From a virus (taxonomy: Duplodnaviria > Heunggongvirae > Uroviricota > Caudoviricetes): 8,702 nt of DNA. The notes beneath the pieces were generated by a model. That model was given only the letters and a program-made list of their open reading frames with translations. It did no database searches and was not told the DNA's origin. The translations under genes were made by a program, and so were the position numbers. This document shows positions 1-8,702 of this stretch, piece by piece (the stretch's first letter is position 1; every line of letters starts with the position of its first letter). The DNA lies in IMG/VR virus record IMGVR_UViG_2648501318_000014; one strand, 5' to 3'.

Positions 1-150
1 CTCAACGGCATCGTCAAAATTATCAAAGCGCAGAGCTTCTGCGTCTTCTTCGTCAAAGAAGTCATCGTCGTGAAGCTTCACGACATAGCGGGGAAGTTTG
101 CTTCTTTGAGGGGCAGGTTTTCGTTTACGGGGTTTAGCTGAACGGGCCAT
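1..150 (-). CDS. Hypothetical protein, N-terminal 50 codons only (gene runs off the window's left edge); divergent from the tail operon
   Basis: ATG at 150-148 on the minus strand with an SD-like AGGT about 6 nt upstream; frame stays open to position 1. Translation MARSAKPRKRKPAPQRSKLPRYVVKLHDDDFFDEEDAEALRFDNFDDAVE has a basic then acidic composition typical of a real protein. The complementary + frame is also open to 138, so strand choice is uncertain. Confidence 0.4.
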   Translation of the reverse strand, partial: MARSAKPRKRKPAPQRSKLPRYVVKLHDDDFFDEEDAEALRFDNFDDAVE

Positions 151-168
151 ATAACTACCTGAAAGACA

Positions 169-1041
169 ATGACATTATCTTTTTTTATAACGGTAATTCC
201 AGACCATGACAAGCCGCAGCCGCCAGGCTGCCTACTCGGTGTTAAACCGCGCATTCTCGGCGTGCCGGGGCACGATAATAAAGCCGTTGCTACTGAGTTG
301 CTGGGCGTGGCGCAAAGCCTGCGTGGGTTTGCTTACCTGTCAGCGTATGGCTGCAAGACGGTGCAGGAGGCGATCACTTACCGTGAAAACTTCAGTCAGC
401 GTGAAGGGATGCTGATCTGGCCTGACTTTACTGGCTGGGACACGGTGCTGAATGCCGACGCAACGGCATATGCCACCGCCCGTGCGCTTGGTCTGCGTGC
501 CAAAATTGATGAGCAGACAGGGTGGCACAAAAGCCTGTCCAACGTGGGCGTGAACGGTGTCACCGGAATTTCTGCTGATGTGTTCTGGGATCTGCAGGAC
601 CCGGCAACTGATGCGGGACTGCTTAACCAGAACGATGTTACCACACTTATCCGCAAAGACGGCTTTCGCTTCTGGGGTTCCCGCTGCCTGAGTGATGACC
701 CACTCTTTGCCTTCGAAAACTACACCCGCACGGCGCAGGTGCTGATGGACACGATGGCAGAAGCGCCAATGTGGGCGGTCGACAAACCGCTGAATCCGTC
801 GCTGGCCCGCGACATTATCGAAGGTATCCGCGCCAAAATGCGCAGCCTGATCAGTCAGGGCTATCTCATTGGTGGCGATTGCTGGCTGGATGAGTCGGTG
901 AACGACAAAGACACTCTGAAAGCTGGAAAACTCACCATCGACTACGACTACACACCAGTGCCGCCACTTGAAAACCTGATGCTGCGTCAGCGCATCACCG
1001 ATCAGTACCTGGTGAATTTCTCCAGCCAGGTCAGCGCGTAA
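169..1041 (+). CDS. FI: Phage contractile tail sheath protein (P2 FI family), apparently 5'-truncated: only the C-terminal ~268 residues are FI-like
   Basis: From [11 protein letters not shown] (about nt 232) to the stop, the translation follows my recollection of P2 FI closely ([70 protein letters not shown]). The in-frame stop TGA at 160-162 and a non-FI leader ([23 protein letters not shown]) show the first ~128 residues of a 396-aa FI are not encoded here. Confidence 0.8.
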
Positions 1042-1050
1042 GGGGACAAC

Positions 1051-1566
1051 ATGGCTTTACCACGCAAATTAAAACACCTGAACCTGTTTAACGACGGGAA
1101 CAACTGGCAGGGGATCGTTGAGTCGCTGACGCTGCCGAAATTCACCCGCAAATATGAGAAGTATCGCGGTGGCGGAATGCCGGGTGCAGTGGATGTGGAT
1201 CTGGGGCTGGATGATAGTGCGCTGGACACAGAATTTTCCATTGGTGGTACTGAACTGCTGCTGTTTAAGCAGATGGGCAAAGCCACGGTGGATGGTATCC
1301 AGTTGCGCTTTACCGGCTCTATTCAGCGTGACGATACCGGGGAAGTGCAGGCCGTGGAGCTTGTGGTGCGTGGACGTCACAAAGAAGTGGATTCCGGCGA
1401 GTGGAAGACGGGCGAAAGCAACACCACCAAAGTGACCAGTACCAACAGCTACGCGAAGCTGACTATCAATGGTGAGGTGCTCTATGAAGTGGACCTTATC
1501 AACATGGTGGAAATTGTGGACGGCGTGGACCTGATGGAAGCGCACCGCAACGCCCTCGGCCTCTGA
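1051..1566 (+). CDS. FII: Phage tail tube protein (P2 FII family)
   Basis: 171-aa ORF starting 10 nt after the FI stop; N-terminus MALPRKLKHLNLFNDGNNWQGIVESLTLPK and length match P2 FII as I recall it; order FI-FII-E-T-U-D is conserved. Confidence 0.9.
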   Translation: MALPRKLKHLNLFNDGNNWQGIVESLTLPKFTRKYEKYRGGGMPGAVDVDLGLDDSALDTEFSIGGTELLLFKQMGKATVDGIQLRFTGSIQRDDTGEVQAVELVVRGRHKEVDSGEWKTGESNTTKVTSTNSYAKLTINGEVLYEVDLINMVEIVDGVDLMEAHRNALGL

Positions 1567-1577
1567 TGTATCTGAAC

Positions 1578-1595
1578 GGCGCGGGATTCCGCGCC
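1578..1595 (+). other. GC-rich stem-loop in the FII-E intergenic region (7-bp stem ggcgcgg/ccgcgcc, 4-nt loop), no U-tract; possible attenuator or RNA-stability element
   Basis: Perfect inverted repeat read directly in the sequence; not followed by a T-run, so not a classic intrinsic terminator. Confidence 0.25.
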
Positions 1596-1620
1596 AGAAC
1601 CCAATTTACAGGACAGAAAA

Positions 1621-1923
1621 ATGAGCGATAAGCAGACTGAAAAGACCATTCAACTGGATACCCCTATCAAGCGCGGTAAAACGGAAATCACCGAAATTGT
1701 GCTGCGTAAACCGCAGTCCGGTGCACTGCGCGGTACACGCCTGCAGGCTATTATGGATATGGATGTGAACGCGATGATGACCGTGATCCCCCGCATCTCC
1801 AGCCCGGCACTGACTGCACAGGAAATTGCAGAGATGGACCCGGCAGATCTCACCGCTATGTCGGTTGAGGTTGTCACTTTTTTGTTGAAGAAGTCGGTAC
1901 TTGCCGGTTTACCGACAGCCTGA
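1621..1923 (+). CDS. E: Tail assembly chaperone E (P2 gpE family)
   Basis: 100-aa ORF immediately upstream of the tape measure gene; contains the canonical slippery heptamer near its 3' end; position and size fit gpE. Confidence 0.85.
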   Translation: MSDKQTEKTIQLDTPIKRGKTEITEIVLRKPQSGALRGTRLQAIMDMDVNAMMTVIPRISSPALTAQEIAEMDPADLTAMSVEVVTFLLKKSVLAGLPTA

Positions 1924-2057
1924 CGGTTGACGATCTGGTGGCTGATATCGCCACCATCTTTCACTGGCCGCCATCCGTTACTGACGTTATGCCGCTGACC
2001 GAAGTGCTGGAATGGCGGTATAAAGCGATTCAGAGAAGCGGGGCCAACGATGAGTGA
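1621..2057 (+). CDS. E+E': Tail assembly chaperone E+E', made by programmed -1 ribosomal frameshift at 1878-1884 (join 1621..1884, 1884..2057; about 145 aa)
   Basis: T TTT TTG sits in the X XXY YYZ register of the E frame; the -1 frame is open from 1884 to TGA at 2055-2057 and overlaps the T start, as in the P2 E/E' and lambda G/GT paradigm. Predicted extension: VEEVGTCRFTDSLTVDDLVADIATIFHWPPSVTDVMPLTEVLEWRYKAIQRSGANDE. Confidence 0.7.
1878..1884 (+). promoter_or_regulatory. -1 programmed frameshift slippery heptamer TTTTTTG
   Basis: Heptamer is in the correct register relative to E codons act|ttt|ttg. Confidence 0.7.
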
Positions 2058-5000
2058 TAATAACCTGCGCCTGCAGGTCATTCTTAATGCGGTTGACAAA
2101 CTCACCCGCCCATTCCGTGCTGCACAGGCCAGTTCGAAAGAGCTGGCTGGCGCAATTCAGAATACCCGAAACAGCCTCAAAGAACTGAATAAGCAGGCTG
2201 GCAGAATTGATGAATTTCGCAAGACGCGCTCGCAACTAGCCATAACAGCCAACAACCTGAACGCAGCCCGCGAAGAGGCGGCAAAACTCGCCACACAATT
2301 TGCTGCCACTAACAGGCCAACCGCCGCGCAGGCAAAGTTATTCAGTCAGGCCAAAACACGAGTACAGGAACTTCAGCAGACCTATAACGGCTTGTTGGGG
2401 GCGGTCCAGAGACAACGTCAGGCACTTAAAGAATCAGGGATTGATACCAGACAACTCAGTAGTGCCCAGCGAGAACTTAAGAAAAATGCTGAAGAAACAA
2501 GGCAGGCACTGGAGGGCCAGCAAAAAGCACTTAAACGTCTGGGTGAACAACAGGCACGGATGAACGCTGCCAGAGAACAATACTCAAGACGGCTTGAAGT
2601 GCGCGATCGCATCGCAGGAGCCGGAGCCACTACCACGGCTGCAGGGCTGGCAATGGGGGCGCCAGTGATGGCGGCAGTAAAAAGCTATACCAGCATGGAA
2701 GATGCCATGAAAGGTGTGGCAAAGCAGGTCAATGGTCTGCGTGACGATAATGGCAACCGCACTGCACGTTTTTATGAAATGCAGGATGCCATCAAGGCTG
2801 CCAGCGAACAGTTGCCGATGGAAAACGGTGCGGTGGACTTCGCTGCACTGGTTGAAGGTGGTGCGCGCATGAACGTCGCAAACCCTGACGACAGCTGGGA
2901 AGACCAGAAACGTGACCTGCTGGCCTTCGCCAGTACGGCAGCAAAGGCGGCAACAGCCTTTGAGCTGCCAGCGGATGAACTGTCAGAAAGTCTGGGGAAA
3001 ATCGCCCAGCTCTACAAAATACCAACCCGCAATATTGAACAGCTCGGCGATGCGCTGAACTATCTGGATGATAACGCCATGTCGAAAGGGGCGGACATCA
3101 TTGATGTGATGCAACGTCTGGGCGGTGTGGCTGACCGTCTGGATTATCGTAAAGCGGCGGTGCTGGGTTCCACCTTCCTGACACTGGGCGCTGCGCCGGA
3201 GGTTGCAGCCAGTGCAGCAAACGCGATGGTGCGTGAATTGTCCATTGCCACCATGCAGAGCAAGAGTTTCTTTGAAGGGATGAATCTGCTGAAACTCAAT
3301 CCTGAAGTGATTGAAAAGCAGATGACGAAGGATGCGATGGGAACTATCCAGCGTGTGCTGGAGAAGGTGAACGCACTGCCGCAGGACAAGCGTCTGTCTG
3401 CCATGACCATGTTGTTTGGTAAAGAGTTTGGCGATGACGCGGCGAAACTGGCAAACAACCTGCCGGAACTGCAGCGTCAGTTAAAACTGACAGCGGGCAA
3501 TGATGCGCTCGGCTCCATGCAGAAAGAATCCGACATCAATAAGGACTCACTTTCTGCTCAGTGGTTACTGGTCAAAACCGGAGCGCAGAACACCTTCAGC
3601 AGCCTGGGCGAAACGCTGCGCCAGCCGCTGATGGATATTCTGTACACGGTGAAAAGCATCACGGGGGCGTTGCGCCGCTGGGTGGAAGCTAACCCGGAAC
3701 TGACAGGCACACTGATGAAAGTAGCGGCTGTTGTGGCTGCGGTTACCGTAGGCCTCGGCACCTTAGTGGTGGCGCTGGCTGCAGTGCTGGGGCCGCTGGC
3801 AGTCATCCGTCTGGGATTCTCTGTGCTGGGTATCAAAACGTTACCTTCCGTTACGGCAGCAGTAACACGAACCAGCAGCGCGTTGTCCTGGTTAGCTGGC
3901 GCTCCACTGGCACTGCTGCGACGCGGGCTTGCTTCATCGGGCAACGCAGCGGGTTTACTTACTGCGCCGTTGTCGTCTTTGCGCCGCACGGCATCACTGA
4001 CGGGGAATGTCCTGAAAACTGTAGTAGGTGTGCCGGTTGCACTGTTGCGGTCTGGATTATCCGGTTTACGTGCTGTTGCTGTGATGTTTATGAATCCACT
4101 GGCAGCACTACGCGGTGGACTGGCTGCCGCAGGCGCGGTGCTGCGAGTACTGGCATCCGGTCCGCTGGCGATGCTGCGCGTTGCCCTGTATGCCATATCG
4201 GGTCTGTTAGGTGCTCTGCTCAGTCCGATAGGTCTTGTGGTTACTGCACTGGCGGGCGTGGCGCTGGTTGTCTGGAAATACTGGCAACCCATCACCGCAT
4301 TTCTCGCTGGTGTGGTGGAAGGATTCAAAGCGGCGGCAGGTCCCATCAGTGCAGCATTCGAACCACTTAAGCCTGTGTTTCAGTGGATTGGCGACAAAGT
4401 GCAGGCGTTGTGGGGCTGGTTTACTGATCTGCTGACGCCCGTTAAGTCGACCTCTGCCGAACTGCAGAGCGCAGCGGCAATGGGGCGACGATTCGGGGAG
4501 GCACTGGCGGAAGGGCTGAATATGGTCATGCATCCGCTGGACTCCCTGAAATCCGGCGTTTCCTGGTTGCTGGAGAAACTCGGCATTGTCAGTAAAGAGG
4601 CTGCAAAGGCGAAATTGCCGGAAAGAGTGACGCGTCAGCAACCTGCGACGGTGAATGCAGACGGTAAAGTGATGATGCCATCGGGTGGTTTTCCGTCATG
4701 GGGATATGGCTTTGCGGGGATGTATGACAGCGGCGGCTATATCCCGCGCGGGCAGTTTGGCATCGTCGGTGAAAACGGGCCGGAAATTGTTAACGGCCCG
4801 GCAAATGTGACCAGCCGGAGAAATACAGCTGCACTGGCTGCCGTTGTTGCCGGAATGATGGGCGTTGCTGCCGCGCCTGCAGAGCTTCCACCGTTGCATC
4901 CTTTGGCACTTCCCGCGAAAGGCGGCGAAGCGATGGTGAGTCGTGCAGCCACTGTGCCGCCCGTTCACCGGATTGAGGCACCGACGCAGATCATCATTCA

Positions 5001-5127
5001 GACGCAGCCAGGACAAAGTGCGCAGGATATTGCGCGGGAGGTGGCACGCCAGCTTGATGAACGTGAACGCAGGCTGAAGGCAAAAGCCAGGAGTAACTAC
5101 AGCGATCAGGGGGGATACGACGCATGA
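2050..5127 (+). CDS. T: Tail tape measure protein (P2 gpT family), 1025 aa
   Basis: Long ORF after E/E'; coiled-coil-like Q/A/K/R-rich N-terminal half, long Ala/Leu/Gly-rich hydrophobic central region, Gly-rich C-terminal part (GENGPEIVNGP); position matches tape measure. Confidence 0.9.
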   Translation: MSDNNLRLQVILNAVDKLTRPFRAAQASSKELAGAIQNTRNSLKELNKQAGRIDEFRKTRSQLAITANNLNAAREEAAKLATQFAATNRPTAAQAKLFSQAKTRVQELQQTYNGLLGAVQRQRQALKESGIDTRQLSSAQRELKKNAEETRQALEGQQKALKRLGEQQARMNAAREQYSRRLEVRDRIAGAGATTTAAGLAMGAPVMAAVKSYTSMEDAMKGVAKQVNGLRDDNGNRTARFYEMQDAIKAASEQLPMENGAVDFAALVEGGARMNVANPDDSWEDQKRDLLAFASTAAKAATAFELPADELSESLGKIAQLYKIPTRNIEQLGDALNYLDDNAMSKGADIIDVMQRLGGVADRLDYRKAAVLGSTFLTLGAAPEVAASAANAMVRELSIATMQSKSFFEGMNLLKLNPEVIEKQMTKDAMGTIQRVLEKVNALPQDKRLSAMTMLFGKEFGDDAAKLANNLPELQRQLKLTAGNDALGSMQKESDINKDSLSAQWLLVKTGAQNTFSSLGETLRQPLMDILYTVKSITGALRRWVEANPELTGTLMKVAAVVAAVTVGLGTLVVALAAVLGPLAVIRLGFSVLGIKTLPSVTAAVTRTSSALSWLAGAPLALLRRGLASSGNAAGLLTAPLSSLRRTASLTGNVLKTVVGVPVALLRSGLSGLRAVAVMFMNPLAALRGGLAAAGAVLRVLASGPLAMLRVALYAISGLLGALLSPIGLVVTALAGVALVVWKYWQPITAFLAGVVEGFKAAAGPISAAFEPLKPVFQWIGDKVQALWGWFTDLLTPVKSTSAELQSAAAMGRRFGEALAEGLNMVMHPLDSLKSGVSWLLEKLGIVSKEAAKAKLPERVTRQQPATVNADGKVMMPSGGFPSWGYGFAGMYDSGGYIPRGQFGIVGENGPEIVNGPANVTSRRNTAALAAVVAGMMGVAAAPAELPPLHPLALPAKGGEAMVSRAATVPPVHRIEAPTQIIIQTQPGQSAQDIAREVARQLDERERRLKAKARSNYSDQGGYDA
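3901..4221 (+). repeat. Five degenerate in-frame tandem repeats (period 63-66 nt) inside the tape measure gene, consensus about P-L-A-x-L-R-x-G-L
   Basis: Repeats APLALLRRGL / APLSSLRRTASL / VPVALLRSGL / NPLAALRGGL / GPLAMLRVAL; the proline codons fall at 3904, 3967, 4033, 4096 and 4162. Confidence 0.5.
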
Positions 5128-5609
5128 TGATGGTGCTGGGATTGTACGTGTTTATGCTGCGCACCGTTCCGTATCAGGAACTGCAGTATCAACGCAGCTG
5201 GCGACATGCGGCAAACAGCCGGGTAAACCGTCGTCCGTCCACGCAGTTTCTGGGACCGGACAACGACATGCTGACGCTTTCTGGTGTTCTTATGCCGGAG
5301 ATAACGGGCGGCAGGCTGTCGTTGCTGGCTCTGGAGCAGATGGCAGAACAGGGAAAAGCATGGCCCCTGATTGAAGGCAGCGGCACGATTTACGGCATGT
5401 ATGTGATTGAGGGACTGAATCTGACTAAAACGGAGTTTTTCCGCGACGGTATGCCGCGCCGGATTGAGTTCACCCTGTCGCTCAAACGGGTGGATGAATC
5501 CCTGTCCGATATGTTCGGTGATCTCAGTACGCAGCTGAATAATCTGCAGGACACGGCAACATCTGCCTTAAGTGATATCAGTAAAACGGTGGGAGGGCTG
5601 CTGTCGTGA
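5124..5609 (+). CDS. U: Tail protein U (P2 gpU family)
   Basis: 161-aa ORF whose ATG overlaps the T stop (ATGA at 5124-5127); size and position match gpU. Confidence 0.85.
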   Translation: MMMVLGLYVFMLRTVPYQELQYQRSWRHAANSRVNRRPSTQFLGPDNDMLTLSGVLMPEITGGRLSLLALEQMAEQGKAWPLIEGSGTIYGMYVIEGLNLTKTEFFRDGMPRRIEFTLSLKRVDESLSDMFGDLSTQLNNLQDTATSALSDISKTVGGLLS

Positions 5610-6706
5610 ATTTCAGCTCTGAACTGCTTAACAAAGGCAACAAAACTCCCGCATTCAGCATCAGTATTGAGGGCAGGGATATCAACACTGTGCTGGATAA
5701 CCGCCTGATGAGTTTGACTCTGACGGACAATCGGGGCTTTGAAGCGGACCAGCTTGATCTGGAGCTGGACGACGCCGACGGAAAAATCGTGCTGCCGCGC
5801 CGTGGTGCGGTCATTACGCTGGCGCTGGGCTGGAAGGGGCAGCCGCTTTTCCCTAAAGGGGCATTCACGGTGGACGAGATTGAACACACTGGCGCACCGG
5901 ACCGCCTGACTATCCGGGCGCGAAGTGCTGATTTTCGTGAAACGCTGAATACCCGCCGTGAAAAGTCGTGGCACAAGACCACCGTTGGGGAAGTGGTGAA
6001 GGAAATAGCCTCGCGGCATAAGCTGAAGATGGCACTGGGTAAAGACCTGTCGGATAAGCCCGTGGAACATATAGACCAGACCAATGAGAGTGACGGCAGT
6101 TTTCTGATGCGGCTGGCGCGCCAGTACGGTGCTATTGCGTCGGTGAAAAATGGCAATCTGTTATTCATCCGGCAGGGACAGGGTAAAAGCGCCAGCGGTA
6201 AACCACTGCCGGTGATCACTATCACACGCAAGGACGGCGACAGTCACCGCTTTACCCTGGCAGATCGCGGAGCCTACACGGGCGTAATTGCCAGCTGGTT
6301 GCATACCCGCGAACCCGCGAAGAAAGAAAGCACTACGGTGAAGCGTAAGCGCAGAACGAAGAATCAGAAGAAAGAGCCGGAAGCGAAGCAGGGCGATTAC
6401 CTGGTGGGTACGGATGAAAACGTGCTGGTACTCAATCGCACCTATGCCAATCGGAGTAACGCCGAACGGGCAGCGAAAATGCAGTGGGAACGCCTGCAAC
6501 GCGGCGTTGCGTCATTCTCGCTACAACTGGCGGAAGGGCGGGCAGATCTCTACACGGAAATGCCAGTGAAAGTCAGTGGCTTTAAACAGCCGATAGATGA
6601 TGCGGAATGGACCATTACGACTCTGACACATACCGTCAGCCCGGATAATGGTTTTACGACCAGTCTTGAGCTTGAAGTGAAGGTTGATGATCTCGAAATG
6701 GAATGA
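5606..6706 (+). CDS. D: Tail protein D (P2 gpD, late control D family)
   Basis: 366-aa ORF with GTG start overlapping the U stop (GTGA at 5606-5609); position immediately upstream of ogr as in P2. Confidence 0.85.
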   Translation: MNFSSELLNKGNKTPAFSISIEGRDINTVLDNRLMSLTLTDNRGFEADQLDLELDDADGKIVLPRRGAVITLALGWKGQPLFPKGAFTVDEIEHTGAPDRLTIRARSADFRETLNTRREKSWHKTTVGEVVKEIASRHKLKMALGKDLSDKPVEHIDQTNESDGSFLMRLARQYGAIASVKNGNLLFIRQGQGKSASGKPLPVITITRKDGDSHRFTLADRGAYTGVIASWLHTREPAKKESTTVKRKRRTKNQKKEPEAKQGDYLVGTDENVLVLNRTYANRSNAERAAKMQWERLQRGVASFSLQLAEGRADLYTEMPVKVSGFKQPIDDAEWTITTLTHTVSPDNGFTTSLELEVKVDDLEME

Positions 6707-6743
6707 TTCTTTACAATGGAGAACTTTTAAGTTTGAAAAATGG

Positions 6744-6763
6744 AATAATGCGATATCATTATT
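6744..6763. promoter_or_regulatory. Dyad-symmetric element aataatgcgatatcattatt upstream of ogr; possible operator or promoter-associated site
   Basis: 7-nt arms aataatg / cattatt around a GATATC core, about 35-50 nt upstream of the ogr start; function not established. Confidence 0.2.
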
Positions 6764-6796
6764 GTGAATTTAGCAAAAATGGGGAGAACTCGAAAA

Positions 6797-7015
6797 ATGA
6801 TGATTTGCCCACTGTGTGGAAGTGCCGCCCATACTCGCAGCAGTTTTCAGGTATCTTCATTGACCAAAGAGCGTTACAACCAGTGCCAGAACATTAACTG
6901 CAGCCATACTTTTGTTACCCATGAAACTTTTGTTCGTTCGATTGCAACGCCAAAAGAGTCAAATCCGGTTCAGCCGCATCCTCATAAATTTAAACAGGTG
7001 GGTTTGCCGATTTAA
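6797..7015 (+). CDS. ogr: Ogr/Delta-type C4 zinc-finger late transcription activator, 72 aa
   Basis: MMICPLCGSAAHTRSS...KERYNQCQNINCSHTF matches the CxxC...CxxxxC Ogr zinc finger; SD GGGGAG about 10 nt upstream of the ATG at 6797; 72 aa as in P2 Ogr. The ORF-track start at 6764 adds a non-homologous extension and is less likely. Confidence 0.85.
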   Translation: MMICPLCGSAAHTRSSFQVSSLTKERYNQCQNINCSHTFVTHETFVRSIATPKESNPVQPHPHKFKQVGLPI

Positions 7016-7078
7016 ATGGCGACATAACTACATGATTTAAAACTATACTTTTCTATAAGTTGAGGTTAAATTAACAAT

Positions 7079-7256
7079 GCCTGACGTTAGCGGGGATTTA
7101 TCCCCACTCCGTAGATATGTAGTTTGTCGCTTTGCGACTGCGGACCGATTACCTGATTGCCATGTAATCGGACGCCGACTTGTTAAGCTTTCTGGGCTAA
7201 CTGGTTGTTATTTTTTATTTAGTTAGGGCCATGCGCTTGCGCTAAGAGACGTCAGG
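7079..7256 (+). ncRNA. Candidate structured noncoding RNA upstream of the RT operon (retron msr/msd-like), bounded by an imperfect inverted repeat
   Basis: Left arm gcctgacgttagcg (7079-7092) pairs with right arm cgctaa-gaga-cgtcagg (7240-7256): 13 bp with a 4-nt bulge. TTAGCG followed by a G-run sits just inside the left arm. Internal hairpins at 7092-7105, 7126-7138 and 7145-7171. No ORF. An AT-rich promoter-like stretch lies upstream and an SD follows the right arm. Confidence 0.3.
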
Positions 7257-7276
7257 TATCTATGGAGGAACAAGTT

Positions 7277-7450
7277 ATGGATACAAACGAACTTGGCTTA
7301 GTTAAGGCGCGTGTTGAACTGATCACCGCTATGCTCAAATGCGCAACCGCGTTTGTTGGCTTAGTTGGTGCGGTTTACGCCGTTCTTAACATGGCCTTCA
7401 ACTACAGCAATTTAACTCATGACAATAGAAGTTCAAAGGTGGGAAGATAA
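7277..7450 (+). CDS. Small hypothetical membrane protein (57 aa, one predicted TM helix); candidate effector or partner of the RT
   Basis: SD GGAGG at 7264-7268, 8 nt before the ATG at 7277; product MDTNELGLVKARVELITAMLKCATAFVGLVGAVYAVLNMAFNYSNLTHDNRSSKVGR has a ~25-residue hydrophobic core; its 3' end overlaps the RT start by 32 nt. Confidence 0.4.
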   Translation: MDTNELGLVKARVELITAMLKCATAFVGLVGAVYAVLNMAFNYSNLTHDNRSSKVGR

Positions 7451-8192
7451 ATTTGAGATTAAGCCCGGGGTTTGGGTTTATGTCCCAAGCGTTGAGGCAC
7501 GTAAAGTCGGAGGGAAGATACTTCAGGCTGTCAGAAACAAGTGGATTCCGCCACTCTATTTTTACCATCTAAGAACTGGTGGGCATCTTAAAGCTGCCAG
7601 ATTACACTTAAAAAGTGATTTTTTTGCCGTTGTTGATATTAAACAATTTTTTCAGTCAACGAGCCGTAGTCGTATCACCCGTGATCTAAAGAGCTACTTC
7701 ACCTATTCTCAAGCGCGGGAAATCTCAACATTTTCAACTGTAAGAAACTTGTCCCATAGTCCACATAAGCATGTCCTCCCTTTTGGTTTTGTTCAATCTC
7801 CAATACTTGCAACCCTCTGCTTAGATAAAAGTTATTTTGGTAGCTTACTACGCCGATTGAACAAACATCATGATCTCAAGCTAAGTGTGTTTATGGATGA
7901 TGTGATCATCTCGTCAAACGATTTGGCCCAATTACAAGCGGCTTACGACGAAGCACTAGTGGCAATGCGCAAATCTGGTTATCAAGCCAACATGAGTAAA
8001 ACTCAGGCACCATCGTCAAAGATTAGCGTGTTTAATTTAACTTTGAGTAAGGGAGTTATGAAAGTCACATCTCAGAAAATGAGTGACTTCCTGATTGATT
8101 TCTATTCAAGCAATTATGAGCCGCACAGAATAGGGGTCAAAAACTACGTCGAAGCTGTTAATCCAGGGCAAGCGAAACTCTTTAAGTTGTAA
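7419..8192 (+). CDS. Compact reverse transcriptase (257 aa) with retron-type motifs
   Basis: Motif 1/2-like YVPSVEARKVGGKIL; NAxxH-like AARLH; motif A FAVVDIKQFFQS (Asp codon 7635-7637); motif B LPFGFVQSPILATL; motif C VFMDDVII (Asp-Asp codons 7896-7901); KVTS in the position of the retron VTG motif. Frame is closed by TAA at 7413-7415 just upstream, so no longer N-terminus is possible. Confidence 0.85.
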   Translation: MTIEVQRWEDKFEIKPGVWVYVPSVEARKVGGKILQAVRNKWIPPLYFYHLRTGGHLKAARLHLKSDFFAVVDIKQFFQSTSRSRITRDLKSYFTYSQAREISTFSTVRNLSHSPHKHVLPFGFVQSPILATLCLDKSYFGSLLRRLNKHHDLKLSVFMDDVIISSNDLAQLQAAYDEALVAMRKSGYQANMSKTQAPSSKISVFNLTLSKGVMKVTSQKMSDFLIDFYSSNYEPHRIGVKNYVEAVNPGQAKLFKL

Positions 8193-8261
8193 TTGCGATC
8201 GCATGTAGTAGCAACTGGGCTTGACTGAATGCCTGCCGCCATTTTGCCGCCACTACCAAAG

Positions 8262-8289
8262 AAAAAAGGGCTACGCTTTCACGTAACCC
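8262..8289 (-). terminator. Intrinsic terminator of ssrA (minus strand); may also terminate the convergent RT operon
   Basis: On the minus strand: 8-bp stem GGGUUACG/CGUAGCCC (one G-U pair), 6-nt loop, then U6 (plus-strand aaaaaa 8262-8267), starting 12 nt after the ssrA 3' end. On the plus strand the same hairpin is followed by a T-rich stretch. Confidence 0.45.
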
Positions 8290-8300
8290 ATTGATTTATT

Positions 8301-8663
8301 TGGTGGAGCTGGCGGGAGTTGAACCCGCGTCCGAAATTCCTACATCCTCGGTACTACATGCTTAGTCAGTCTTTACATTCGCTTGCCAGCTGCGGACGGA
8401 CACGCCACTAACAAACTAGCCTGATTAAGTTTTAACGCTTCAACCCCAGGCAGGGCTTCCACGCGATCTCTTTTGGGTTTGACCTCTCTTGATCCCCGTC
8501 CTAAGAGCGGAGGCTAGGGAGAGAGGGCTCTAAGCAGGTTATTAAGCTGCTAAAGCGTAGTTTTCGTCGTTTGCGACTATTTTTTGCGGCTTTTTACGAG
8601 GCCAACCGCCCCTCGGCATGCACCTTGGGTTTCGCAAATCCCGTCGAATCCAGAATCAGCCCC
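8301..8663 (-). ncRNA. ssrA: tmRNA (transfer-messenger RNA, SsrA), complete 363-nt gene
   Basis: Reverse complement begins GGGGCTGATTCTGGATTCGACGGG and ends GGTTCAACTCCCGCCAGCTCCACCA; the tag reading frame GCAAACGACGAAAACTACGCTTTAGCAGCTTAA (ANDENYALAA-stop) is at 8542-8574. Matches enterobacterial ssrA as I recall it. Confidence 0.95.
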
Positions 8664-8677
8664 AATGTGTAAAGGTA

Positions 8678-8683
8678 AGTATA
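8678..8683 (-). promoter_or_regulatory. Putative -10 hexamer (TATACT on the minus strand) of the ssrA promoter
   Basis: TATACT lies 14 nt upstream of the mature tmRNA 5' end, consistent with a short processed leader; the -35 region would be at or beyond the window edge. Confidence 0.3.
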
Positions 8684-8702
8684 CCAGATTTATGAGCGCC
8701 AT

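Follow-up and report, generated by a model that had tools for sequence, protein, structure and literature searches.

The window analysed here, a stretch of 8,702 nucleotides (nt) taken at its full length, begins inside an insertion sequence (IS) of the IS91 family and passes at nt 235-238 into FI, the tail sheath gene of a P2-like prophage, where FI codon 123 directly adjoins the terIS end of the element. Very probably this arrangement arose by transposition of an element of the IS91/ISEc84 group into FI of the prophage integrated at ssrA in Escherichia coli SvETEC. An earlier note drawn from the sequence had supposed FI to be truncated or interrupted near 165-235, possibly by an insertion, and this is what we find; its further suggestion, that the inserted DNA might be cargo of the fibre/FI variable region, does not hold, because what was inserted is an IS and the tfa-FI spacer of relatives measures 107 nt without any cargo. 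The two partners come from well-described families, and the join obeys the published rules for IS91 with a known minor target.

Source contig and the IS91-family partner

The first nucleotide of the window is nt 3 of draft contig JPPP01000044.1 (32,878 bp; GCA_000835045.1) of E. coli O157 SvETEC, and the exact look-up of the 290-aa chimeric protein encoded across the join returned this single contig. JPPP00000000 is the record of E. coli O157 SvETEC, a pig ETEC from Australia, assembled from MiSeq reads by A5-miseq with retention of only those scaffolds that exceed 1 kb (PMC4384309). The contig begins 240 nt inside the IS91-family element, and the record therefore contains no upstream sequence of the kind that the earlier note had proposed to inspect. 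Repeats are the usual cause of breaks in short-read assemblies, and the stop at the left edge is an assembly break inside a multicopy repeat.

Positions 1-238 represent, on the minus strand, the terIS-proximal end of the element (IS91/ISEc84 isoform group), its left limit being set by the contig end. They are 100% identical to complete 1829-bp copies found in E. coli UMNF18 (locus L001) and on plasmid pSvP1_F of SvETEC itself (L004). Taken alone, nt 1-240 occur at 2,482 places in complete E. coli genomes (2,239 of them on plasmids, with a maximum of 22 per genome), and such abundance, mostly plasmid-borne, is the signature of an insertion sequence. The complete copies compared form at least two groups with 95-97% identity between them, and the name given to the element therefore goes no further than the IS91/ISEc84 isoform group. 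On the P1-like plasmid pSvP1 of SvETEC (NZ_MN510446.1) the 238 nt are matched six times, once at 100%; five copies of ISEc84 (IS91 family) as well as IS91 have been described on it together with the rearrangements that they drove, and activity of the IS is documented for this very strain (PMC6906374).

The gene that the earlier note had seen starting at 150 on the minus strand and reading out of the window does begin there, with an ATG appearing as CAT on the plus strand (148-150), and its reading frame runs off the left edge because the draft contig stops within the multicopy IS. The homology search recommended at that time identifies it as orf121, the small regulatory gene ahead of tnpA in IS91, whose first 50 codons occupy positions 1-150 (minus strand) and whose product begins MARSAKPRKRKP. 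In the L001 copy, identical over the 238 nt, the same ORF consists of 121 codons and its TGA overlaps the ATG of tnpA by one base (TGATG) in a part of the element lying outside the window; orf121 preceding tnpA with a one-base overlap is a feature of IS91 (PMC13181058). The identical 238 nt thus form in UMNF18 the end of a 1,829-bp element, in which the small ORF is followed by a gene annotated as "IS91 family transposase", and it is the succession of a 121-codon ORF and an IS91 transposase in this full copy that allows the divergent gene to be called orf121. The transposase of L001 contains the Pfam domains Y2_Tnp and Zn_Tnp_IS91 and reaches 291 bits with the NCBIfam model transpos_IS91 (cutoff 125). 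For the element in the window, tnpA lies beyond the contig end, and PF04986, PF14319 and NF033538 are matched by tnpA of the copies sharing its 238 nt.

The promoter region of orf121 likewise falls within the IS segment. At the opposite extremity of this segment a subterminal palindrome GCAGCC-GCCA-GGCTGC (216-231, plus strand) can form a 6-bp hairpin of -7.1 kcal/mol. Its folding energy is unremarkable alone (z -1.1), and it is placed 7 nt before the cleavage site, as published for terIS (PMC13181058). The succession of a palindrome and 5'-CTCG, by which terIS is recognized, is therefore present, and the ends are identical in six complete copies.

The FI remnant and its prophage

Over nt 235-8702 the window shares 100% identity with the chromosomes of porcine ETEC strains CV839-06, ETEC1731 and ETEC1747; with identity of 100% over 238 nt on one side of the join and over 8.4 kb on the other, chance is ruled out for the assignment of both partners. 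In CV839-06 the corresponding stretch makes up the right arm of a P2-like prophage that looks complete, lies at ssrA and is annotated from portal and terminase to ogr. Alignment with intact P2-like prophages, another check proposed by the earlier note, gave an FI of 390 aa with an identical 3' part: the chimeric ORF and residues 123-390 of the intact CV839-06 protein coincide at 268 of 268 positions. The window hence retains the 3' two-thirds of FI at 239-1041 on the plus strand (FI nt 371-1173, encoding residues 124-390; with the shared CTCG included, the range is 123-390), while 122 codons (31%) are missing from the contig. The remnant carries the gpFI domains Phage_sheath_1 (PF04984, 9.5e-30) and Phage_sheath_1C (PF17482, 8.7e-22); it falls short of a full-length gpFI, since only residues 123-390 are encoded and the region corresponding to PF22671, which N-terminal FI fragments of relatives carry, is absent.

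The TGA closing the FI frame at 160-162, pointed out earlier, is present in the sequence. Downstream of it a fortuitous chimeric ORF of 290 aa (169-1041, plus strand), recognized from the ORF list and protein alignment, places 22 IS-derived codons in frame with FI residues 123-390; a sigma-70-like promoter was sought in nt 1-1100 and none was found. Beyond FI the P2-type tail and late genes FII, E, E', T, U, D and ogr (1051-7015, plus strand) are intact, as judged from their Pfam families and 100% identity to the CV839-06 prophage. The ssrA gene for tmRNA (8301-8663, minus strand; ARAGORN, and Rfam tmRNA with 295.8 bits) marks the chromosomal attachment side, and the contig continues rightward into smpB, ratA and bamE in the gene order of CV839-06. 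Since ssrA and the order of these three genes match CV839-06, the right side lies in its native chromosomal position.

A retron-like module occupies 7077-8192 on the plus strand, between ogr and ssrA. Its first 183 nt (7077-7259) are closed by a 12-bp stem and fold with a minimum free energy of -67.7 kcal/mol versus -52.0 kcal/mol for shuffled sequences (z -3.7, a value reached by 0 of 200 shuffles); none of the Rfam families matched the retron-like region at gathering score. This segment is followed by a hydrophobic ORF of 57 aa (7277-7450) and then by a reverse transcriptase ORF of 257 aa (7419-8192) matching Pfam RVT_1 at 2e-21, with PADLOC RT_VI as the best match (6.6e-18) and only 49.5 bits with NCBIfam retron_St85_RT, for which the cutoff is 235. 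The top-ranked E. coli genomes covering most of the window at 97-100% identity have a reverse-transcriptase-domain protein annotated at the position of 7077-8192.

Many other truncations of FI are on record. Among truncated or fused FI proteins from public assemblies, five (P0037-P0040 and P0045) share a left breakpoint after FI residue 117 (...GMKALL), whose codon lies upstream of the window; their right partners vary, being the C-terminus of gpD, the C-terminus of FI, an alternative frame inside D, or an unrelated tail. The residue-117 breakpoint may be a recurrent deletion endpoint or may reflect a few inherited remnants.

The join at nt 235-238 and its probable origin

A megablast search with nt 1-1100 against 5,426 complete E. 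coli genomes and the phage collection returned hundreds of matches annotated as "phage tail sheath protein", all of them starting at query nt 235, and no record spanned the whole query. The onset of FI homology, formerly placed at about nt 232, is thereby sharpened. The ends of the IS were defined from six complete copies extracted from five loci: at oriIS the element begins with ATCGATAGG, the preceding four nucleotides being CTTG in three cases, GTTC in one and CTCG in two, while at terIS all six copies end with ...GCCTACTCG (CTACTCG), after which unrelated sequence follows. By this measure the IS in the window ends at nt 238 and FI resumes at nt 239 (GTGTTAAACC). As prophage matches start at nt 235 and the IS ends at nt 238, the tetranucleotide CTCG at 235-238 (plus strand) is common to both partners, representing the last four nucleotides of the IS, at which terIS is cleaved, and simultaneously FI nt 367-370; because it is identical in the IS end and in FI, the exact join is ambiguous over 4 nt. 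The intact gene reads CACAGCTCG followed directly by GTGTT, so that CTCG stands immediately ahead of the join on the strand that the orientation of the IS requires.

According to published data, IS91 was cleaved at terIS after CTCG in 111 of 111 events, its oriIS is inserted beside CTTG or GTTC, with CTCG accounting for about 1-4% of in vivo insertions and being the third commonest target in silico, and target duplication is not made (PMC13181058). The join described above looks like the outcome of normal IS91 transposition, because FI possesses a CTCG target just before it on the strand fitting the orientation of the element. On that strand of FI 9 of 1173 positions are preceded by CTTG, GTTC or CTCG, and a random breakpoint would therefore fit about 0.8% of the time.

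Three further observations concern the flanks of related copies. On plasmid NZ_CP122939.1 (locus L005, 2296-4667) a partial copy is followed head to tail by a complete IS91-family copy, inserted in tandem immediately behind its terIS CTCG, which shows that the element's own end is usable as a CTCG target. Plasmid pSvP1_F (L007) carries ISEc84.1 and ISEc84.2 (22924-24752 and 43285-45112; PMC6906374) in opposite orientations, with GTTC and CTCG flanking their oriIS, which provides a second natural CTCG flank in SvETEC. Around the copy residing in espL4 of UMNF18 (L001) the near-identical 13-mers agtttaattcttg and ggtttaattcttg are seen at 10395-10409 and 12270-12282, one just outside the oriIS end and the other about 30 nt past the terIS end; they probably belong to an internal repeat of the target gene espL4.

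Based on these data, the following sequence of events may be proposed. The donor would probably be one of the many copies residing on SvETEC's own plasmids. During rolling-circle transposition the transposase is expected to link oriIS to the target tetranucleotide, for which CTTG and GTTC are the usual choices and CTCG a less frequent one, whereas the terIS end, cut after CTCG, would be linked to the base that had followed the tetranucleotide, leaving the target without duplication. With CTCG at FI nt 367-370 serving as the presumed target, the window would represent the terIS side of the event (...GCCTACTCG continued by GTGTTAAACC...), the IS lying in the orientation opposite to FI, with orf121 and tnpA directed away from what is left of FI. 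Assembly of the draft broke inside the multicopy IS, and the contig for this reason starts there. On the oriIS side a simple insertion is predicted to give ...TCACAGCTCG continued by ATCGATAGG..., with a protein product composed of FI residues 1-122 plus LDR (125 aa); the DNA at the FI/oriIS join would read ...CCCAGTCACAGCTCG continued by ATCGATAGGAATTT..., with the tail fibre genes located upstream. The terIS/FI' junction is known from one assembly only among the E. coli genomes, phages and proteins looked up, and the flanking prophage is identical to its intact relatives; from the sequence comparison the event thus looks recent and strain-specific.

The oriIS side of this model found no counterpart in the searches performed. 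The predicted 125-aa product was absent from a collection of 15 billion proteins, including the gene calls of the SvETEC assembly, as judged by exact look-up; homology search with the FI N-terminus brought up only unrelated truncations and frameshifts; the predicted FI/oriIS junction was not found in IMG/VR by exact search, and in the same way the terIS/FI junction was found neither in species-representative genomes (one per species) nor in IMG/VR. Among the 15 matches listed for the FI 5' part in the plasmid collection there was no SvETEC record, and coverage of the query stayed below 80% in every record. Relocation of this part to a dropped scaffold of less than 1 kb by way of a tail-fibre-assembly gene repeat on pSvP1 was considered and set aside as weak, identity being only 87%. 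The published PHAST table assigns to SvETEC the region S5 (scaffolds 44, 70 and 14; 28.1 kb) with P1 as the best match and the grade "incomplete", a Fels-2/P2-like region being absent from the entries for this strain; an "intact" Fels-2-like region of the sister strain appears at the equivalent position, as estimated from the difference in coordinates of a prophage that the table lists for both strains.

The missing oriIS-side matches suggest that subsequent recombination between IS copies may have removed this flank or carried it elsewhere. It is accordingly conceivable, and we take it as a serious if somewhat doubtful option, that insertion at CTCG was followed by recombination between IS91-family copies, which deleted, inverted or relocated the oriIS-side flank, so that FI nt 1-370 and possibly the whole left part of the prophage (about 26 kb) are no longer adjacent or are lost. 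Such a course is compatible with transposition as the first step and departs from the model above only in how the locus is arranged today. In favour of it speak the failure to find the FI(1-122)+LDR product, the fact that beyond a tail fragment in a locus graded "incomplete" PHAST lists no P2/Fels-2-like region for SvETEC, the multiplicity of IS91-family copies in this strain, and the precedent of pSvP1, where the halves of pmgB adjoin two different IS copies through IS-IS recombination (PMC6906374). This support is, however, wholly negative or indirect: scaffolds of less than 1 kb were dropped from the deposited SvETEC assembly, PHAST was run on reference-tiled scaffolds, from which those containing prophage only may have been filed as accessory, and the exact look-up demands a perfect match, whereas the FI 5' part of SvETEC could differ by one residue from the CV839-06 query.

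Considerably less probable is an origin without any transposition into FI, in which the IS resided elsewhere upstream and an illegitimate deletion guided by CTCG microhomology fused the tip of terIS to FI nt 371. The 4-nt identity at the join is also expected from microhomology-mediated deletion, and the FI 5' part was not found; but such a deletion would have to end at precisely the point where the IS is cut enzymatically, and the shared tetranucleotide happens to be a documented transposition target in the right orientation, both of which transposition into FI explains without coincidence. Still poorer are the chances that assembly produced a chimera by fusing IS91 read-through sequence to an FI that is whole in the real genome. 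The draft was built from short reads and its contig has an end 240 nt from the join, yet an overlap of 4 nt is far under the k-mer length of any assembler, the architecture of the join is exactly that of a real IS91 terIS junction, and an intact FI from the SvETEC assembly was not seen. A naturally short functional sheath starting near residue 123, which the earlier note had named as a possible refutation, is refuted by comparison with close relatives and has practically nothing in its favour apart from the in-frame ORF at 169-1041, as all relatives with the identical 3' part encode the full-length protein of 390 aa, the first 22 codons of the ORF stem from the IS, and FI aligns end to end with the pyocin sheath PA0622.

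Consequences for the prophage and comparison with known systems

The sheath gene is broken whether or not FI nt 1-370 persists beyond the IS. Working from the sequence, we expect that the prophage should not make functional tails and is probably defective, since a contractile tail would be precluded by the loss of the 122 N-terminal residues of the sheath combined with the probable polarity of the 1.8-kb insert on FII-E-T-U-D. In the structure deposited as 3J9Q, the paper of Ge and colleagues of 2015 reportedly describes the N-terminal arm of each PA0622 subunit as part of an inter-subunit mesh holding the sheath, and by analogy a sheath protein without residues 1-122 should not assemble. In P2, FI and the downstream tail genes are co-transcribed; an insert of 1.8 kb in the opposite orientation within FI is therefore likely to be polar on FII-E-T-U-D.

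It may be imagined, with very little likelihood, that the arrangement has acquired some function, either because the IS91 copy mobilises FI'-FII-E-T-U-D-ogr together with the retron-like RT module to a plasmid or because the IS::FI' fusion poisons tail assembly of superinfecting P2-like phages. The first would proceed by one-ended rolling-circle transposition from oriIS past an inefficient terIS beside FI', and the second would depend on expression of the in-frame IS::FI' fusion as an N-terminally truncated sheath.

From the practical point of view, the P2-like prophage of SvETEC is best scored as probably defective with disruption of an essential tail gene, in agreement with the "incomplete" PHAST call in the genome paper. 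The case would add a further natural instance of IS91-family insertion at the minor target CTCG, in a strain where this IS already reshaped a P1-like plasmid, and it recalls that where a gene runs off the edge near a breakpoint in a draft contig, the cause is usually a repeat-induced assembly break. Beyond annotation its significance is small, the event being ordinary damage of a prophage by a mobile element.

Compared with known systems, the left partner resembles the IS91 prototype (X17114) and its isoforms, including ISEc84 of pSvP1, in the terIS tip consisting of a subterminal palindrome and CTACTCG. Like IS91, the group is characterized by the 121-codon orf121, the TGATG overlap, a Y2 HUH transposase with a zinc-binding N-terminal domain and a length of 1829 bp, as well as by oriIS flanked with CTTG, GTTC or CTCG in the absence of target duplication (PMC13181058; PMC6906374). 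In contrast to complete IS91 copies the window holds only 238 nt of the element, and the likeness to IS91/ISEc84 is drawn through complete genome copies and published descriptions, leaving the isoform name at group level. The right partner conforms to gpFI of P2-like phages (Peduoviridae), with residues 123-390 identical to FI of intact prophages, Phage_sheath_1 and Phage_sheath_1C present, and DNA 94-95% identical to that of sequenced P2-like Klebsiella and Escherichia phages; the alignment of intact FI with the R2 pyocin sheath PA0622 runs from end to end (PDB 3J9Q; E 1.9e-68, 5-383 on 3-381). Unlike intact gpFI, the product encoded in the contig lacks the N-terminal 122 residues and has 22 codons read from the IS instead. 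IS-inactivated or remnant P2-like prophages of E. coli likewise have a mobile element in a late structural gene with intact neighbours, and the present one differs from other remnants in that its junction occurs in a single contig and its flank is still 100% identical to intact relatives.
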